Shown here: piece by piece, positions 3,456 through 48,231 of the stretch
Position numbering within the stretch: position 1 is the stretch's first letter
How the letters are laid out: each line of letters begins with the position of its first letter
Source of the DNA: a virus
Lineage: Duplodnaviria; Caudoviricetes
Strand: one strand, 5' to 3'
Virus record (IMG/VR): IMGVR_UViG_3300036790_000232
Span: 1 to 53,085 of that record
Length of the DNA stretch: 53,085 bases
Made by a program: the position numbers and the translations under genes
The notes under the pieces: generated by a model
Seen by the model: only the letters and a program-made list of their open reading frames with translations
Told to the model about the DNA's origin: nothing
Database searches by the model: none

Positions 3456-4295
3456 ATGGCAGTGGGCGCGGCGAAATGGATATGGGAGAACTCGCGCGCC
3501 TCGAACGGCTCACTGATTGTGCTGCTTGCAATTGCCGATGAATGCGGAGAGGGGGAATTCACGGAGATGAGCGTGGCCCAGCTAATGGTCAAGTGCCGCC
3601 TTTCAGATAAGGGCGTGCGGCGTTCCGTCGAGGCCCTGGAAGCGCTCGGGGAGCTGTCCGTGGAGCCCCGGCCGGGCGGCATCAGCCGGTACGCGCCGAC
3701 GCTGACCCCGGTCATTTTGACCGGACCCACCCCGGTCATTTTGACCGGACCCCCGGCTGACCCCGGTCAAAATGACCGGACCCCTACCCCGGTCATTTTG
3801 ACCGGACCCCCGGAGGAACCGCAGGTCAACGGAACCCCGGTCAAAATGACCGGGGTGGAAATCTCCGACATTCTTTTGACTGTTACAGGTAGTTCTCTGG
3901 TGGAGGTTAAAGAGACGCCGGCAAAGCCGCCGACGTCTCCTGACCGCCCCGACGTCGAGCGACTCTGCACCCGCCTCGCCGACCGCGTCGAAGCCAACGG
4001 CAGCAAGCGCCCCGTTGTCAGCAGGAAATGGCGCGACGCCGCCCGGCTGCTAATCGACAAAGACGGGCGCACCGAGGAACAAGTTGCCGCATGCATCGAC
4101 TGGTGCCAGGCCGATGAATTCTGGCGCGGCAACGTCATGTCAATGCCGACCCTCAGAGAGAAATACGACCGGCTAAGGCTCGACGCGCTTCGCAAGCTGA
4201 AAGCCCAGAAGCGGAATTCACGCCAGCCCGACGAAGCCGATCAGCAAGAAGCACTAGAGATCGCCCGGAAGCTCGACGCCATGGAGGCAATGTGA
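3456..4295 (+). CDS. Phage replication initiator (N-terminal winged HTH, lambda O-like organisation)
   Basis: LIVLLAIAD...L..KCRLSDKGVRRS..ALE..GEL HTH; internal iterons; C-terminal W...DEFWRGNV.S...LREKYD.L. Confidence 0.85.
   Translation: MAVGAAKWIWENSRASNGSLIVLLAIADECGEGEFTEMSVAQLMVKCRLSDKGVRRSVEALEALGELSVEPRPGGISRYAPTLTPVILTGPTPVILTGPPADPGQNDRTPTPVILTGPPEEPQVNGTPVKMTGVEISDILLTVTGSSLVEVKETPAKPPTSPDRPDVERLCTRLADRVEANGSKRPVVSRKWRDAARLLIDKDGRTEEQVAACIDWCQADEFWRGNVMSMPTLREKYDRLRLDALRKLKAQKRNSRQPDEADQQEALEIARKLDAMEAM
3708..3853. repeat. Replication origin iterons: five 17-bp palindromic CCGGTCA(TTT/AAA)TGACCGG
   Basis: Copies start at 3708, 3732, 3763, 3789, 3837; followed by a lower-GC stretch. 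Confidence 0.85.
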
Positions 4296-10931: not shown

Positions 10932-11267
10932 ATGCCCTGGGAGAAGACGGCCGCCGACCGAAAAGCGGAGAACGCGTTCTATAACGACCCGGTCTATAAA
11001 CGCAACAAGGTCATCGTCCTGCGCCAGGCCGGCGGGCGCTGCAGCGACTGCGGCCACAGGCACCAGCGGCTCCAAGTCGACCACGGCATCCCGCGGGCAC
11101 AGGGCGGCGGCCACGAGCTGGCCAACCTGTCCGCCAAGTGCTCCGGCGACGGATCTTGCAAGTGCCACGAGAAGAAGACCGCGACCGAGGGCCGTGGCTA
11201 CCGCAACCCGGCCAGCCGCACCACTACAGCGCGTGACCCGAAGCCGAAGCCACGGACGAGATGGTGA
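10932..11267 (+). CDS. HNH endonuclease (packaging-associated type)
   Basis: CSDC...VDH.IP..QGG.H..ANL...C...CH..KT; sits next to the packaging region. Confidence 0.9.
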   Translation: MPWEKTAADRKAENAFYNDPVYKRNKVIVLRQAGGRCSDCGHRHQRLQVDHGIPRAQGGGHELANLSAKCSGDGSCKCHEKKTATEGRGYRNPASRTTTARDPKPKPRTRW

Positions 11268-11654: not shown

Positions 11655-11738
11655 TGCACGGCTGAGCGTGGCCGAGCATGGCGCGGTTTGGCAGGGCTAG
11701 GTGCGGCCCGGCAGCGCGAGGCAACGACCCCCGAAGGG
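11655..11738 (+). ncRNA. GGY-NN pentamer array 1 (putative guide RNA) with terminal hairpin
   Basis: 14 five-nt units from TGC-AC to GGC-AA, then CGACCCCCGAAGGG. Confidence 0.8.
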
Positions 11739-11745
11739 ATCCACC

Positions 11746-12330
11746 ATGGACTTTCGTGTAACTCTCACAGGCACGAGCGCGCTGATCATGAACAACGCGC
11801 GCATGGCCAACCCGCTCGACCCCGCGACCAAGGCGTACAAGGCGGTCAGCGGGAAGCGGAGCAAGACCGAGCAAGACCTTGAAGGCGTTTTCCGGCTCGG
11901 CCACGCAGGGGCGATGTACCACGACGGCGACGTTGGCCCGTACTTGCCGGCCGACAACATATGGAAATCGCTGCAGGAGGGGGCCAAGAAGCACCGTCTC
12001 GGGCAGAAGGTGACCGAGGGCGTGATCATCCTGACGGACGTCAACCCGATCGCCTACAAGGGGCCGCGTGACATCCCTGGCCTGTGGTCCGACGAGAACT
12101 TCCGGTTCATGTCGATGCGCGTGACCGGCACCGGCTCGCAGCGTAAGCGCGTCCCGTTCTGCCGGCCGGTGTTCCGTGAGTGGCACACCGACTGCACGGG
12201 GACGCTTGACGACTCGATCATTGACCTGGATGAGTTCCGGTTGATCGCCGAGACTGCAGGCTCACGGGTCGGCGTTTGCGACTGGCGCCCTCGCTACGGC
12301 CGGTTCTCGGCGGTCGTTGAGGCGGCCTGA
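11746..12330 (+). CDS. Stand-alone Cas7/RAMP-fold protein (Vipr-like)
   Basis: 194 aa; N-terminal strand FRVTLTGTSALIMN, GPYLPADNIWKSL helix motif, RPVF.EW, Gly-rich C-terminal loop AGSRVGVCDWRPRYGRF. Confidence 0.75.
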   Translation: MDFRVTLTGTSALIMNNARMANPLDPATKAYKAVSGKRSKTEQDLEGVFRLGHAGAMYHDGDVGPYLPADNIWKSLQEGAKKHRLGQKVTEGVIILTDVNPIAYKGPRDIPGLWSDENFRFMSMRVTGTGSQRKRVPFCRPVFREWHTDCTGTLDDSIIDLDEFRLIAETAGSRVGVCDWRPRYGRFSAVVEAA

Positions 12331-12869
12331 TGTCGCCGTTCACCCCGAAGGGTGACCGTGCACGCTGGCGGGCGGTCTACGATCTGCTGCGCGGTTCTGC
12401 CGTGGGGGACGTGATCACGTACGAGCAGATCGGCGAAGCGCTCGACCTGGACCCGGAGGACGACCGCCACCGTATCCAGATGGCGGTACGGCGGGCCGCG
12501 AAAGAGCACGAGGAACAGGACAGGCGCGCGATCGAGGTCGTGCCCAACAGCGGGTACCGCATCGTGGAGGCACCTGAGCACCTGCGGCTGGCGCGCAAGC
12601 AGCAGAAGAAGTCATCGCGGGCGCTGGTGCGCGGGCACTCGAAGGTGACCCACGTGGACCTGTCCGGCATGGACCCGGACACGCGGCACGCCTTCGAGGT
12701 GGTAGCGCGGGCGTTCACGATGCAGATGGAATTCAACAAGCGGTTCGACGTCCGGCAGGAACGTATCGAGAACGCGGTCAGCGAGATGACCGAGCGGACC
12801 GAGCGGACCGAGCAGGAGATAGCCGACCTGAAGGCCAGGCTTGCCCGGCTGGAAGGCGAGCAGACCTAG
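12330..12869 (+). CDS. Winged-helix plus coiled-coil accessory protein
   Basis: GDVITYEQIGEAL...V...GYRIV wHTH pattern; C-terminal heptads; TGATG coupling to the RAMP gene. Confidence 0.75.
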   Translation: MSPFTPKGDRARWRAVYDLLRGSAVGDVITYEQIGEALDLDPEDDRHRIQMAVRRAAKEHEEQDRRAIEVVPNSGYRIVEAPEHLRLARKQQKKSSRALVRGHSKVTHVDLSGMDPDTRHAFEVVARAFTMQMEFNKRFDVRQERIENAVSEMTERTERTEQEIADLKARLARLEGEQT

Positions 12870-12952
12870 CAGGGCACGGCACGGCAGGGCTGGGCTTAGC
12901 CCGGCTTGGCGCGGCAGCGCGTGGCTAGGCAAGGCAACGGCCTCCGTAGAGG
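12868..12952 (+). ncRNA. GGY-NN pentamer array 2 with terminal hairpin
   Basis: 14 units from AGC-AG to GGC-AA, then CGG-CCTC-CGTA-GAGG. Confidence 0.8.
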
Positions 12953-12957
12953 TGGCA

Positions 12958-12997
12958 GGGTGACCGGCAGTCATCCCGGTTCGAGACCGGGGCACCC
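12958..12997 (+). ncRNA. tRNA-like minihelix (acceptor-like stem plus T-arm) between arrays 2 and 3
   Basis: GGGTG...CCCGG-TTCGAGA-CCGGG-G-CACCC. Confidence 0.65.
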
Positions 12998-12998
12998 G

Positions 12999-13083
12999 CG
13001 CAAGGCTGGGCATGGCTGGGCCGGCCCCGGCTGGGCGCGGCCTGGCGCGGCATGGCGTGGCACGGCAACGACCCCCGAAGGGG
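12999..13083 (+). ncRNA. GGY-NN pentamer array 3 with terminal hairpin
   Basis: 14 units from CGC-AA to GGC-AA, then CGACCCCCGAAGGGG. Confidence 0.8.
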
Positions 13084-13088
13084 AGAGC

Positions 13089-13331
13089 ATGACAACGACC
13101 ACCGTCACCACCGTCCGCTGTGACCAGTGCGGCAAGACCGTGCCGAAGGAACAGCGTGACGGGTGGCTGTTCCTGAACGTCATGAGCAAGGAAGCCCACA
13201 GGAGCAGGGTCGACTTGACCATCGCTGGACTTCGCTGGCCGGCCGCGCTCTCGTCTGACCTGTGCTCATGGGAGTGCGTCCGCGACTACGCGGCCCTCCA
13301 GTTGCTTGACCCGACACCTGAGCAGCCGTAA
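13089..13331 (+). CDS. Small Cys-containing (zinc-finger-like) protein
   Basis: CDQC...CSWEC; GAAGGGGAG RBS inside the array 3 hairpin. Confidence 0.65.
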   Translation: MTTTTVTTVRCDQCGKTVPKEQRDGWLFLNVMSKEAHRSRVDLTIAGLRWPAALSSDLCSWECVRDYAALQLLDPTPEQP

Positions 13332-14954
13332 CGCGACGATCATCCGTATCCGTGCCCGCTTCACCGCGGGGATCGTGAGCGCGAGCTTGACCGCGCCCGC
13401 CGCTGCGTAGGCGGCGTCCACGTGGCCCTCGTGCTTGCGGGTGAACCGCCAGCCGTCGCCGCTGCTGAGCTTGCTGGCGGCGCGGACGTGAGCGTCTAGC
13501 AGCGGGTCCGCGGGGTGCACGACGCGCAGCGCGCGGGCCAGGTCGGCCAGTTCCTGGCATGCCTCGGTGACCCTGGCGCCCGTGATGGCGCCGTCCTCGG
13601 GCACGTCGCCGGGCTCCCGCTTGCCGCCAGGCCGCCTGTTGTACCGCAGGGCGAGCGGCCGCAGGGTGGTGGCGATGCCCGCGGCGGGCCCGGACGGGTA
13701 CCAGCCGAACGCCGCGGGCTTGATCTCGGCGAGCAGCGCGGGCAGTTCGGCGCGCACGGCGTCGGTGCTGTCCCATGCGGCGGCGATCTCGACGCGCGGC
13801 CTGCCGTCGGCGAGGGTGGCGGAGACGGCGAGGGTGGCGTGCTTCCCGTCCGGCGCGACGTCGAGGCACGCGGCGATGCGCCCGCGGTGGGCGTCCATGG
13901 TGCCGGCGGGGTCGGCGCAGTTGTCCCATGAGGCGTGGTCGATGGCGGCGTCGAGGTTGGCGACACGCTGGCAGAGCACTTCCGTCCTGAATATCTCGGG
14001 CGGGTCCTCGCCGAGCGATGACCGGACCGCGGCTTCGCCGATGCCGTCGGCGTAGCCGAGGGCGGGGTTGGCCTGCGCCCAGGCTTCCTCGTCGTCCAGC
14101 TCGCAGCCGTCGGGGGCGCTGTACTCGATGAGGCAGAGCGCGGGGTTGGTGCCGGCCCGCCCGGCGGCCTGGAGCTGGTTGAGGACGACAGAGGTGTCGT
14201 CGCCGGCGTTGGACATCGCCCAGAGCTGGCCGTTGCGGCGGGCCATGGTGGTCTTGGACAGTGACCCCCAGGCCTTCCAGTCCTTCTGGGTGCGCAGCTC
14301 GTCGATGTTGACTTCGTCGTTGCTGCCGCCGCGGCCGGCCTTGTCGTTGGTGGCCTTGATGGCGTAGCACCCGGTTCCTGCCCAGAACATCTCGTCGCCG
14401 TTGACGTTCCGGACGTCAATCCACTCTTCTTGCAGGTCGGGGCAGGCGTGGATGGTTTCCTGGCACATCTGCCACTGCTTGCGGGCGAGGGAGAGATCCT
14501 GGGCGGCGCCGACGATGTCACGGGCGCCGTCCATGTACATGCGCCAGAGGGTGACGATCCGCTTGAGGTGGCTCTTGCCGTTCTGGCGGGCGACGATGAT
14601 CAGGACGGTGCGGAAGCGGTAGCTGCCGTCGGGGTTGAGCTCGAGCGCGTGGATGACGGCCCATCGCTGCCAGGGCAGGAGGGGCTGGCCGATCATCTCG
14701 GCGAAGTCGATGACCTCGTAGCCGCGGGTGGTCTTGCGGTTGAGCGGCCGCAGCGGCCTGGTCCACAGGCGCGGCTCGGTGCGCCCTAGGAGCTTGCGGC
14801 CGGGCCCGCGCCTGGCGGGGTCCTGCGGGCTGCCGGGCTTGTGGTCGGGGCAGCGCTTGCGGCCGGGGGCGGCGAGCTTGCGGCAGCCGGCGAAGCTGCA
14901 GCGCTTACGCGCTGCGCGCGTCGCGGAGCTTCGCGAGTCCGTTTGGCTTGGCAT
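13266..14954 (-). CDS. terL: Terminase large subunit
   Basis: LLPWQRW, Walker A VARQNGKS, Walker B VNIDELR, SNAG coupling motif, QANPALG, C-terminal VDAAYA nuclease motif. Confidence 0.95.
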   Translation of the reverse strand: MPSQTDSRSSATRAARKRCSFAGCRKLAAPGRKRCPDHKPGSPQDPARRGPGRKLLGRTEPRLWTRPLRPLNRKTTRGYEVIDFAEMIGQPLLPWQRWAVIHALELNPDGSYRFRTVLIIVARQNGKSHLKRIVTLWRMYMDGARDIVGAAQDLSLARKQWQMCQETIHACPDLQEEWIDVRNVNGDEMFWAGTGCYAIKATNDKAGRGGSNDEVNIDELRTQKDWKAWGSLSKTTMARRNGQLWAMSNAGDDTSVVLNQLQAAGRAGTNPALCLIEYSAPDGCELDDEEAWAQANPALGYADGIGEAAVRSSLGEDPPEIFRTEVLCQRVANLDAAIDHASWDNCADPAGTMDAHRGRIAACLDVAPDGKHATLAVSATLADGRPRVEIAAAWDSTDAVRAELPALLAEIKPAAFGWYPSGPAAGIATTLRPLALRYNRRPGGKREPGDVPEDGAITGARVTEACQELADLARALRVVHPADPLLDAHVRAASKLSSGDGWRFTRKHEGHVDAAYAAAGAVKLALTIPAVKRARIRMIVALRLLRCRVKQLEGRVVADALP

Positions 14955-15228
14955 CGGCAGGCTTGGTCTTCTTCATGGCGGCGCGCGCCGCGGGCGTCGC
15001 GCCGAGCTCGGCGAGGACCTTGAGCAGCTCGGGGCCTAGCCACCTGATGGCGGCGGCGTAGGCCTTGCCGGGCGGGGCCTCGTCGATGGTGCGGGCGTAC
15101 TGGAGTGCGAGCTTGGCGGCCGCGGCGTCCTGGCCGTCGGGGTCGAGCTTGAGGACGGCGACCGTCTGGCTGACGGCGGGCCAGAGCTGCTGGCTCACCT
15201 CTCGCAGCACCGTCATTGTCGGCTCCAT
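14905..15228 (-). CDS. terS: Terminase small subunit
   Basis: LA..YARTID...LGPELLKVLAELGATPAARA motif, directly upstream of terL. Confidence 0.85.
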   Translation of the reverse strand: MEPTMTVLREVSQQLWPAVSQTVAVLKLDPDGQDAAAAKLALQYARTIDEAPPGKAYAAAIRWLGPELLKVLAELGATPAARAAMKKTKPADAKPNGLAKLRDARSA

Positions 15229-15621: not shown

Positions 15622-15843
15622 GTGGACTTGCCAGAGATCACCGAGGTCAAGCGGCTGACGCTCCGCCCTGGCGACTCGGTCATCGTGCGCCTTGAGTACG
15701 ACCCGTCGATGGACGAGGTCGACGGGATCCAGGCGGGCGTACTGAGTGCCCTGGGCCGGCTGGACTACGTGCCGCCGGTGCTGGTGCTCGGTCCCCGCAT
15801 GGACATCGAGGTCATCGGGCCGCCTGACGCGGACACCACCTGA
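15622..15843 (+). CDS. Hypothetical protein
   Basis: GTG start; L.L.PGD.VIVR pattern; TGATG overlap with portal. Confidence 0.6.
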   Translation: MDLPEITEVKRLTLRPGDSVIVRLEYDPSMDEVDGIQAGVLSALGRLDYVPPVLVLGPRMDIEVIGPPDADTT

Positions 15844-46716: not shown

Positions 46717-46934
46717 GTGCACATGCAGTGCACATGAGTAATACCTAATAGTACCGGATAAGAAACAATAAGAATTAATAGTTTCGCAGACCAGATAAGG
46801 CGAATCGAAAACGCGGGCCTCTGGCCTGCACCGGCTCAATCCCGCTCCCTATTACCGGGTCAAGTGCTGCTACACCACCCTGGCCAGCGGTGACGTCCGG
46901 TTACCCGCTTCCGGTTGCACAGACCGTGCACATG
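46717..46934. other. Putative attP region with arm-type repeats
   Basis: GTGCACATG at 46717, 46728, 46926 and a variant at 46915, flanking an AT-rich stretch at the integrase 3' end. Confidence 0.65.
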
Positions 46935-48231
46935 CACCGAGGAAAGCGGCCGACGCCGCGCGGCCCGCGTCCTCGCCGTCGTGGTCGTCCGGCATCAGGT
47001 GAAGGTAGGCCTGCGTCACCATCTCGACCGTGTCGCCCAGCCACGCCGCGGCCCGCACGACGTCGATGCCCCCGCGCAGCCACGCCGACGCGGCGGTGTG
47101 CCGCGTCCGGTGGATGCCGTAGCCCCGCGCCAGCGCCCGGCGCCCGCCCAGCACCTGCGGCGCCCGCCAGCGGCTCACCCCGGTACGCCACGCCGCGTCC
47201 ATGACGTTCCTGCCGGCGGCCGTCCCGTCCTCGTGCGACAGCACCAGGCGCACCGTGACCAGCGTGCCGTGGAGCTTCGACCCCGGCTCGTGCCACGGCA
47301 GCGTCACCGCCAGCGGCGGGAACCGCTCCGCGTGCGCGTCGATCCGCTCGACCAGCTCGGGCGGCACGGGCACGTCGTGCGGCTTCTTGTTCTTCACCGG
47401 CCCGAAGCGCAGCTCCCCGCCGATTTCCTTGAGCTGGCGCGTGACGCGGACCTTCGGCTTCTTCCCGCGGACGATGTCGTCGGCACCCAGGCCGGCCATC
47501 TCCATCTCGCGCATGCCGGTGCCCGCGCCCAGGTAGGGGACGAGCCCGAAGCGCTCCGGCATGCACGCGGCGATCCCCGCCACCTCGGCCGGCGCGTATG
47601 GCTGCGCCTCGCCGCCGCCCTTCCCCGGCCGGTCCACCGCCTTCGACTTGACTGGGTCGCGGCCGACGATCCCGTCCTCGGCCGCGGCCTGGAAGACGGC
47701 TGAGACGTCGCCCATCACCAGGCGCCTGGAGCTGTCGGCCAGCGGCATCGCGGCGGCCCACGCGGCGACGATGCTCGGGCGCGCGGCGAGCAGCCCCATC
47801 GGGTACTGGCCGATCGCCGCGCCGCCCTTGGGTGTCTTCCCGCTGCCCGGCTCGCCCTCGTAGACGTGGCAGCGCAGGCGCGCCTCCAGCCCGGCCGCGG
47901 CCGACTCGCCGTGCTTGCGCGACTTGCGCCACTGCTCGGCGTACGCCCGCAGCGTCACCTCCCCTGCGTCGGGGTCGGTGTAGGTGCGGGTGTCGATCTC
48001 CCGCCGGATCTTGACGTCGAACGCCTCGGCGTGGAGCTCGGGGTTCTTGCCCTCCCTGAGGGCGAAGTTCCTTGCCTTCTGCTTCCCGGTGACCGGGTCG
48101 CGCCAGCGGACCTGCCAGCGGTCACCGCGCTGGTGGTCCCTGCCGGGGTAGAGCTTGTTGCGCCCGCGCCCGCAGTGGCACGGCTGGCCGCCGTCCCGCT
48201 GGTCGCGGTGCCACCTGTCGTAGACGGCCAT
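46870..48231 (-). CDS. int: Tyrosine integrase
   Basis: TGMR..E..GL, HRTRHT.AS, A.WLGD, AY.H motifs; RWQVRWRDP arm-binding domain. Confidence 0.95.
   Translation of the reverse strand: MAVYDRWHRDQRDGGQPCHCGRGRNKLYPGRDHQRGDRWQVRWRDPVTGKQKARNFALREGKNPELHAEAFDVKIRREIDTRTYTDPDAGEVTLRAYAEQWRKSRKHGESAAAGLEARLRCHVYEGEPGSGKTPKGGAAIGQYPMGLLAARPSIVAAWAAAMPLADSSRRLVMGDVSAVFQAAAEDGIVGRDPVKSKAVDRPGKGGGEAQPYAPAEVAGIAACMPERFGLVPYLGAGTGMREMEMAGLGADDIVRGKKPKVRVTRQLKEIGGELRFGPVKNKKPHDVPVPPELVERIDAHAERFPPLAVTLPWHEPGSKLHGTLVTVRLVLSHEDGTAAGRNVMDAAWRTGVSRWRAPQVLGGRRALARGYGIHRTRHTAASAWLRGGIDVVRAAAWLGDTVEMVTQAYLHLMPDDHDGEDAGRAASAAFLGACARSVQPEAGNRTSPLARVV

Follow-up and report, generated by a model that had tools for sequence, protein, structure and literature searches.

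According to the preprint that describes them (bioRxiv 10.64898/2026.04.26.720920), VIPR systems are phage-encoded and combine an ancestral RAMP protein (Vipr) with an accessory Vap gene and vrRNAs. The vrRNAs consist of YNNGG repeats, 9-16 in number, and it is the NN dinucleotides that read the DNA, one base being skipped (bioRxiv 10.64898/2026.04.26.720920). The reference for VIPR type II is the system of phiSUSP1 (bioRxiv 10.64898/2026.04.26.720920 and 10.64898/2026.04.26.720927). In types I and V, vrRNA arrays interspersed with hammerhead ribozymes have been reported (bioRxiv 10.64898/2026.04.26.720920, main text and legend of figure S19). VIPR was described in 2026 and, apart from these hammerhead-interspersed arrays, its main texts leave unexplained how a transcript carrying several guides is cut.

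The window, i.e. the whole stretch of 53,085 bases that was analysed, is an entire virus record with direct terminal repeats and a G+C content of 70%. It is a complete 53-kb actinophage-like genome carrying a VIPR system. Among its phage genes are those for an HNH endonuclease, the terminase subunits, portal, protease, capsid proteins, tape measure protein, endolysin and a tyrosine integrase. A short operon that contains a tRNA-like minihelix is flanked by the HNH gene (10932-11267) on one side and, on the other, by the large terminase gene, which is convergent with it (13266-14954, -). Its members are gene A (11746-12330), gene B (12330-12869) and possibly a third gene (13089-13331). The features of this locus are:

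11660-11724, +: vrRNA array 1, 13 pentamer units (GGC, AGC, GGT or CGC, each followed by NN), just upstream of vipr (periodicity scan, sequence)
11725-11745, +: array 1 tail hairpin, CCC/GGG around CGAA, overlapping the vipr ribosome-binding site (sequence)
11746-12330, +: vipr (gene A), Cas7-like RAMP protein of 194 aa (phrog_4652; AF2; Foldseek; homology to phiSUSP1 Vipr)
12330-12869, +: vap1-like accessory gene (gene B), predicted DNA-binding protein with a C-terminal coiled coil (phrog_5926)
12868-12937, +: vrRNA array 2, 14 units, the first of which (AGC) overlaps the vap stop codon (periodicity scan, sequence)
12940-12953, +: array 2 tail hairpin, GCCTC/GAGGT around CGTA (sequence; compensatory change relative to the tails of arrays 1 and 3)
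12958-12998, +: tRNA-like minihelix (sequence, covariance model, covariation)
12999-13068, +: vrRNA array 3, 14 units, starting with a CGC unit one base after the acceptor stem (periodicity scan, sequence)
13069-13088, +: array 3 tail hairpin, CCCC/GGGG around CGAA, overlapping the ribosome-binding site of the 13089 ORF (sequence)
13089-13331, +: possible 80-aa gene with CxxC pairs, doubtful member of the system

Gene A shares 32% identity over 191 aa with phiSUSP1 Vipr (E = 5e-33). The AlphaFold (AF2) model of its product, built from 27 homologues, has a pLDDT of 92.1, and its best Foldseek matches are chains of type III Csm and type VII effector complexes (E ~1e-5, TM ~0.5); Csm3 is named in one title, at rank 42, among the matches listed. 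Similarity of gene B to phiSUSP1 vap1 is weak (E = 0.001), its position and order being as in phiSUSP1, and its homologue in phage MakoManhole is annotated as DNA binding protein. One of the loci reached through the Vipr alignment (L079) is 100% identical to Escherichia phage phiSUSP1, the model of the VIPR preprint. The gene at 13089-13331 is absent from the closest relative (72% Vipr identity), and its membership in the VIPR system is doubtful because of this lack of conservation.

The 5-base periodicity of the arrays is specific to this locus: at least six of ten in-phase GGC occur at only three sites of the window, all on the + strand, with a maximum of five elsewhere. Since GGC arrays occur at these three places, the fold of gene A and its homology to phiSUSP1 point to Vipr, and the published description fits, we conclude that the locus is a new VIPR member, comprising Vipr, a vap1-like gene and three vrRNA arrays of GGC/NN pentamers. 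Homology to Vipr, tandem pentamer vrRNAs on the vipr strand and an adjacent vap gene are all found in the window. The repeats flanking the minihelix, read as guide arrays in an earlier note made from the sequence alone, can thus be identified by periodicity scan, Vipr homology and published description as vrRNAs of a VIPR system. Other interpretations were considered and dropped, namely a TRAP-like ring protein binding the 5' UTR and, for the arrays, terminase small-subunit/cos-site repeats, Chi-like pentamers or G-quadruplexes; the Cas7-like fold and the VIPR description fit instead.

As in phiSUSP1, the system is phage-encoded, with a homologous Vipr, a vap1-like second gene and GGY/NN pentamer arrays that comprise 13-14 units and share the strand of the genes, one array being upstream of the gene pair and two downstream. 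Two features set it apart. The tail that follows the repeats is a hairpin of 10-14 nt, whereas that of phiSUSP1 is a pseudoknot of ~40 nt, and the two downstream vrRNAs are split by the tRNA-like minihelix. In the phiSUSP1 locus itself, a conserved, hairpin-looking stretch of ~35-40 nt precedes each vrRNA (2270-2320, 3540-3590, 3700-3740 and 3840-3880; e.g. ~2283-2320), which may be relevant to how that clade makes its vrRNA 5' ends.

All three arrays of the window end with GGCAA-CG, followed by the small tail hairpin. Its stem changes in a compensatory manner, with CCCC/GGGG and CCTC/GAGG in the window and CCAC/GTGG in a relative; a 17-nt motif of the array 1 tail recurs at 13066-13082. The tail hairpins of arrays 1 and 3 overlap ribosome-binding sites, and therefore the following gene could be translated differently depending on vrRNA maturation or Vipr binding. 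Under the rule that 1 nt is skipped, no exact target of the last 10 NN units of vrRNA 3 or vrRNA 2 was found in the viral contig collection, and, for all three guides, the best matches within the window and the related loci were no better than those of shuffled-order controls. In some relatives, the units are mostly AGC-NN rather than GGC-NN (L007 at 2030-2174, 2796-2990 and 3505-3644; L006 at 2142-2236), and one array in these relatives has ~38 units, far more than the 9-16 of the VIPR preprint.

Between arrays 2 and 3, an acceptor-like stem of 5 bp is formed by GGGTG (12958-12962) and CACCC (12993-12997). The T-stem pairs CCCGG (12975-12979) with CCGGG (12987-12991) and closes the loop TTCGAGA (12980-12986); the linker (12963-12973) carries GG at 12966-12967. 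G12998 is unpaired, and C12999 opens a CGC-AA unit that is in phase with the GGC-NN units, seven of the first eight units being in register 0. The arrangement given in the earlier note, an acceptor-like stem and a T-arm with a single unpaired base before the start of array 3, is borne out by the sequence. One detail has to be revised: G12992, taken there as a spacer between T-arm and acceptor, pairs with T12974 (G.U), and this pair covaries in the family. This sixth T-stem pair was added unprompted by RNAalifold, so that the T-stem extends over 12974-12979/12987-12992 and the stack in this copy amounts to 11 bp. From the covariation described below, tertiary pairs T12971-A12986 and C12972-G12985 are predicted for the window's copy.

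The window contains three T-arm-like hairpins, where 0.19 would be expected, and of 200 simulated genomes 3.5% showed a T-arm together with a paired acceptor. The folding energy is no better than that of shuffled sequence (z = -0.16), a lack of signal that is expected in GC-rich DNA. The covariance model of the family scores the window's minihelix with 51.8 bits (E = 3.9e-10). The weight of the evidence is comparative, and a chance origin of the minihelix is unlikely. ARAGORN called no tRNA at this position, and there was no Rfam tRNA match even at E <= 10; a cloverleaf is not formed, as D-arm and anticodon arm are missing and only 11-12 nt lie between acceptor and T-stem. No ribozyme was matched by Rfam in the window. 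An intrinsic terminator is likewise absent from the + strand at 12869-13089, where the hairpin is followed by GCGCAAGG. Elsewhere in the genome, there are two neighbouring tRNA-like genes with odd anatomy (22820-22898, - and 23041-23150, -). The first matches the tRNA model with 49.7 bits and is called Gly-GCC, having an acceptor stem extended to ~11 pairs and, in the anticodon arm, a stretch of 18 nt in place of the 11 expected by the model. In the second, which is called by neither ARAGORN nor the Rfam tRNA model, an insert of ~50 nt is surrounded by sequences resembling the acceptor, D-arm and T-arm of a tRNA.

Related loci were fetched with an alignment of 27 Vipr homologues, which yielded 80 viral and 43 genomic loci (118 distinct sequences, 603,608 bases). 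The alignment was required, as locus searches with a single protein gave few relatives; exact scans of the viral contig collection for the window's tail motif and for the T-arm with acceptor gave nothing. When a five-pair stem, the loop TTCRANN and an acceptor of 5 or more pairs were required, this strict pattern occurred 79 times on the vipr strand of the 118 loci and never on the other strand; 20 first-order simulations gave 0-3 occurrences each. From 69 copies, a covariance model was then built, which gave 98 matches at E <= 0.01 in the related loci, all 98 on the vipr strand. After adding the match in the window and dropping identical loci, 94 copies in 40 loci remained (38 of the 118, Gordonia phage MakoManhole and the window), while 80 of the 118 related loci are devoid of the minihelix. 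Absence of similar elements at homologous loci had been set beforehand as part of the outcome that speaks against the proposal of the earlier note; such elements are present, both between and beside arrays. We conclude that the minihelix represents a conserved family of tRNA-like RNA elements of ~40 nt.

The named hosts are mostly Actinomycetota (Streptomyces, Streptantibioticus, Piscicoccus, Mycobacterium, Pseudoclavibacter, Gordonia and Planomonospora), with a single Armatimonadota MAG. The covariance model found no minihelix in 22 loci that hold the phiSUSP1-like group (L067-L088) or in the alphaproteobacterial loci. The cultured Gordonia phage MakoManhole has the same gene pair, with three minihelices around vipr-vap and beside arrays. 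In the closest fetched relative, a minihelix is found at the same place, between the two downstream arrays; this copy is the AG/G55 variant (see below) and was missed by the covariance model. As to ribozymes in minihelix-free relatives, Rfam gave no match in 20 loci at gathering scores and none in six loci at E <= 1. Two minihelix-free loci, L076 (2080-2440) and L123 (2190-2420), show a different conserved element of ~45 nt, which brackets every array in an n+1 pattern (for example, four such elements around three arrays in L076). It begins with GGGTAGTACC, contains a GC-rich hairpin and has no Rfam match; either a further kind of processing device or an undescribed ribozyme is conceivable.

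Members of the family have an acceptor of 5-7 bp, a T-stem of 6 bp (giving a stack of 11-12 bp), a canonical T-loop and a linker of 10-12 nt. Among 92 distinct copies, T54, C56, R57 and the pair G53:C61 are invariant (92/92 each) and A58 is found in 85; a linker GG is present in 90. In the acceptor and T-stems, 87.5% of the cells are paired and 205 cells changed on both sides, compared with 53 in shuffles, a covariation that is inflated by the selection of copies for pairing. This selection did not use the sixth T-stem pair, the linker-loop pair or the G55/AG switch. At the sixth T-stem pair, the 69 copies show CG (31), GC (19), UA (9), UG (4) and AU (1), with five broken.

For the 54 copies with G59, the linker base four positions before the stem is Watson-Crick complementary to the last loop base in 50, a number that none of 10000 shuffles reached, and neighbouring linker offsets give only 8-25 Watson-Crick copies. 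The linker base that follows is C in 51 of these 54. In all five copies with G at loop position 55, the linker has AG instead of GG (from reading the rows). In tRNAs, the elbow contains a G18-U55 contact, and by analogy the AG/G55 switch is the behaviour expected of a contact of this kind. Because the linker-loop contacts that covary lie outside the selection of copies, the covariation indicates that the linker GG and a following base would contact the T-loop, thus mimicking a tRNA elbow without a D-stem or anticodon arm. Different from tRNAs, the linker would make an additional Watson-Crick contact with T-loop positions 59-60. In the class 2 minihelices, whose T-loops end with CT or TT, no consistent linker-loop pair was seen by eye.

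The placement of the 94 copies relative to arrays is as follows: 49 have arrays on both sides, 27 only upstream, seven only downstream and 11 on neither side at the threshold used, so that an array precedes the minihelix in 76 cases and follows it in 56. Locus L044 is an extreme example, with eight minihelices bracketing seven arrays, and minihelices also alternate with arrays in L027, L011 and L042. In the window, arrays 1 and 2 have no minihelix at their 5' ends. Among the 74 copies with an array downstream, 33 are separated from it by exactly 1 nt; the one unpaired base described in the earlier note for the window is therefore the commonest spacing of the family, followed by 8 bases (eight copies). 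Between an array and the minihelix after it, the distance varies, with values scattered over 1-57 nt. Immediately behind the acceptor stem, the four bases read ACGC in 41, GCGC in 18, ACGG in seven and ACGA in four of the 94 copies, while the base before this stem is A in 59 and T in five. Half of the 94 copies and three more, the window's among them, have a stack of 11 rather than 12 bp (50/94).

As no promoter-like or terminator-like site was found on the + strand between vap and array 3, we infer that the vipr-vap-array region would be a single transcript. Host RNase P could then read the acceptor/T-stem stack and the T-loop and cut 5' of the minihelix, at about 12957/12958 (+/- one or two bases), which would release vrRNA 2 along with the hairpin at its tail. 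RNase Z or some other enzyme may also cut behind the unpaired base (12998/12999) and so release vrRNA 3 with its 5' end exactly at the first repeat unit; if this does not happen, vrRNA 3 would keep the minihelix as a 5' cap. In both cases, the minihelix would act as punctuation, in the role that Cas6 has in CRISPR arrays and hammerhead ribozymes have in other VIPR arrays. The hammerhead-interspersed arrays show that cutting devices do occur as inserts in VIPR arrays. The observed dividers on both flanks of the arrays, among them leading copies after vap and trailing copies before vipr, are in line with what punctuation predicts.

RNase P is reported to bind the stack of T-stem-loop and acceptor, which it measures starting at the elbow, and to need a T-loop-like structure, but not a D-loop; its P15/L15 region pairs with the tRNA 3' end (PMC4919913). 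RNase Z contacts T-arm and acceptor and cuts after the discriminator, and cytidines directly after the discriminator are described as suppressing it (PMC7479834). The minihelix resembles the minihelix substrates of both enzymes in having coaxial acceptor and T-stems, a canonical T-loop, one unpaired 3' base and no CCA thereafter. Relative to a coaxial stack of ~12 bp with T-loop, it has 11 bp in the window and 11-12 bp in the family, with the T-loop consensus kept. It differs from such substrates in the 11-bp stack of the window's copy and in the single C that is conserved after the unpaired base in most copies. This C, at the position of the reported RNase Z suppressor, weakens a role of RNase Z. 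Alternatively, its pairing partner might be the P15/L15 region of RNase P.

Bacterial RNase P favours a U just before the acceptor stem, and the rarity of T at this position (5/94) therefore counts against RNase P. A stack of 11 rather than 12 bp is a further point against cleavage. Nor is the minihelix essential for making vrRNAs, since 80 of 118 loci are without it and arrays 1 and 2 of the window lack a 5' copy. With regard to the idea, put forward in the earlier note, that host tRNA enzymes replace Cas6, one part is in line with the lack of any Cas6-like nuclease in the locus, whereas the share of RNase Z has lost ground through the C after the discriminator. On balance, we lean towards the view that host tRNA enzymes would cleave at the minihelix and thereby separate the guides. 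RNase P appears more likely than RNase Z to be involved, and alone would suffice to split the transcript.

Another possibility, which we consider doubtful without dismissing it, is that no host cleavage takes place and that the minihelix would be a structural part of the mature guide, i.e. a 3' cap, a 5' handle or a folded boundary that stops the spread of the Vipr filament. The vrRNAs of phiSUSP1 are reported to end in a pseudoknot tail of ~40 nt that caps the filament (bioRxiv 10.64898/2026.04.26.720920). The minihelix is of similar size and has a pseudoknot-like contact between loop and linker. That an array precedes it in 76 of 94 copies and follows it in 56 counts against punctuation, as this also fits a 3' cap, and the fixed 1-nt spacing to the next array would suit a 5' handle kept in register. 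However, the seven leading and the 27 ending copies cannot both be accounted for if the minihelix is purely a 3' cap or purely a 5' handle. The phiSUSP1 tail starts right after the last repeat, whereas 1-57 nt separate array and minihelix here, and the clade already has a conserved small tail hairpin directly after the last unit. Moreover, the features that the minihelix copies are those read by tRNA enzymes, not those of the phiSUSP1 tail.

If the tRNA mimicry served another purpose, for example recruitment of CCA-adding or tRNA-modifying enzymes that stabilise the RNA, or a decoy for host nucleases attacking tRNAs, one could understand why the conserved elbow-like tertiary contacts go beyond what a bare processing hairpin seems to need, and the phage does have two odd tRNA-like genes elsewhere. 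We regard this as improbable, though: the minihelix was found only beside vrRNA arrays and on their strand, it offers no anticodon arm to anticodon nucleases, the acceptor sequences vary freely across the family, and the n+1 punctuation pattern would be left unexplained. Still far less probable is a relic or accident, be it a tRNA fragment forming an attP core, a chance hairpin or a coding frame running from GTG 12960 into the 13089 gene. Phages often carry tRNA fragments at attachment sites, and the frame 12960-13331 is open, with an SD-like GAGG upstream. Yet an attP core is expected beside the integrase, which lies 34 kb away (46870-48231), and the minihelix shows compensatory changes across 40 loci and never occurs on the other strand. 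As for a coding frame, a repeat with a period of 5 nt cannot be a coding repeat, and the 13089 gene is absent in the closest relative.

Some observations made along the genome concern other regions. The large and small terminase genes (13266-15228, -) run counter to the portal, protease and capsid genes (15843-17264, +), and at its 3' end the large terminase gene shares ~65 bases with the 13089-13331 ORF. Two consecutive genes (18559-20058 and 19977-21170) both match the phage capsid family PF05065. At 3701-3813, a unit of 57 bp is present twice and contains inverted copies of ACCCCGGTCA(A/T)4TGACCGG; this repeat could be a protein-binding site or an origin-like element.

Returning to cleavage by host tRNA enzymes, the arrangement in the window resembles the hammerhead-interspersed VIPR arrays in that a structured RNA lies between adjacent vrRNAs, with a proposed cut that separates them. 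The hammerhead arrays cut themselves, whereas the element described here has tRNA features and would depend on host enzymes. In CRISPR systems, the pre-crRNA is cut by Cas6 or else by host RNases, such as RNase III with a tracrRNA or RNase E in a cyanobacterial type III system. The need to cut a transcript with several guides into single ones is the same in both cases, as is the possibility that a host enzyme takes over; the system of the window, by contrast, has neither CRISPR repeats nor Cas6 nor tracrRNA, and its guides are pentamer repeats with a gapped code. Punctuation by tRNA-like elements is known from the tRNA-miRNA transcripts of murine gammaherpesvirus 68, from MALAT1-mascRNA, from mitochondrial tRNA punctuation and from synthetic polycistronic tRNA-gRNA arrays. 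In those cases, neighbouring small RNAs are set free by host RNase P or RNase Z, which a tRNA-shaped element recruits for the purpose. They are eukaryotic or engineered, whereas the minihelix would be a natural case from a bacterial virus, serving a RAMP-based guide system.

VIPR as a kind of system is already known; new relative to the VIPR main texts is the tRNA-like divider between vrRNAs. The main texts of the VIPR preprints contain no link of tRNA, RNase P or RNase Z to vrRNAs, the word tRNA appearing there only in the annotation methods; the supplements (figures S16-S19, data S4) could show one. Nothing else was found in the literature searched on a Cas7-like protein with a tRNA-like element or on vrRNA with tRNA.

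A conserved tRNA-like divider gives a concrete mechanism for the cutting of multi-guide transcripts, which is testable in a cultured phage-host pair (Gordonia phage MakoManhole). Whether many actinobacterial VIPR systems would be natural polycistronic tRNA-guide arrays, cut by host tRNA enzymes and by RNase P above all, appears evenly balanced on the comparative data. If true, this would place next to Cas6 and self-cleaving ribozymes a third way in which guides mature, by borrowed enzymes, and it would be the natural counterpart of the tRNA-gRNA arrays engineered for multiplex CRISPR; a host-processed divider of 40 nt could also help to build multi-guide VIPR tools. A RAMP guide system would then run without a processing nuclease of its own, which bears on the proposal that VIPR predates CRISPR and would illustrate how guide systems built on a RAMP could function at a time when there was no dedicated processing nuclease.
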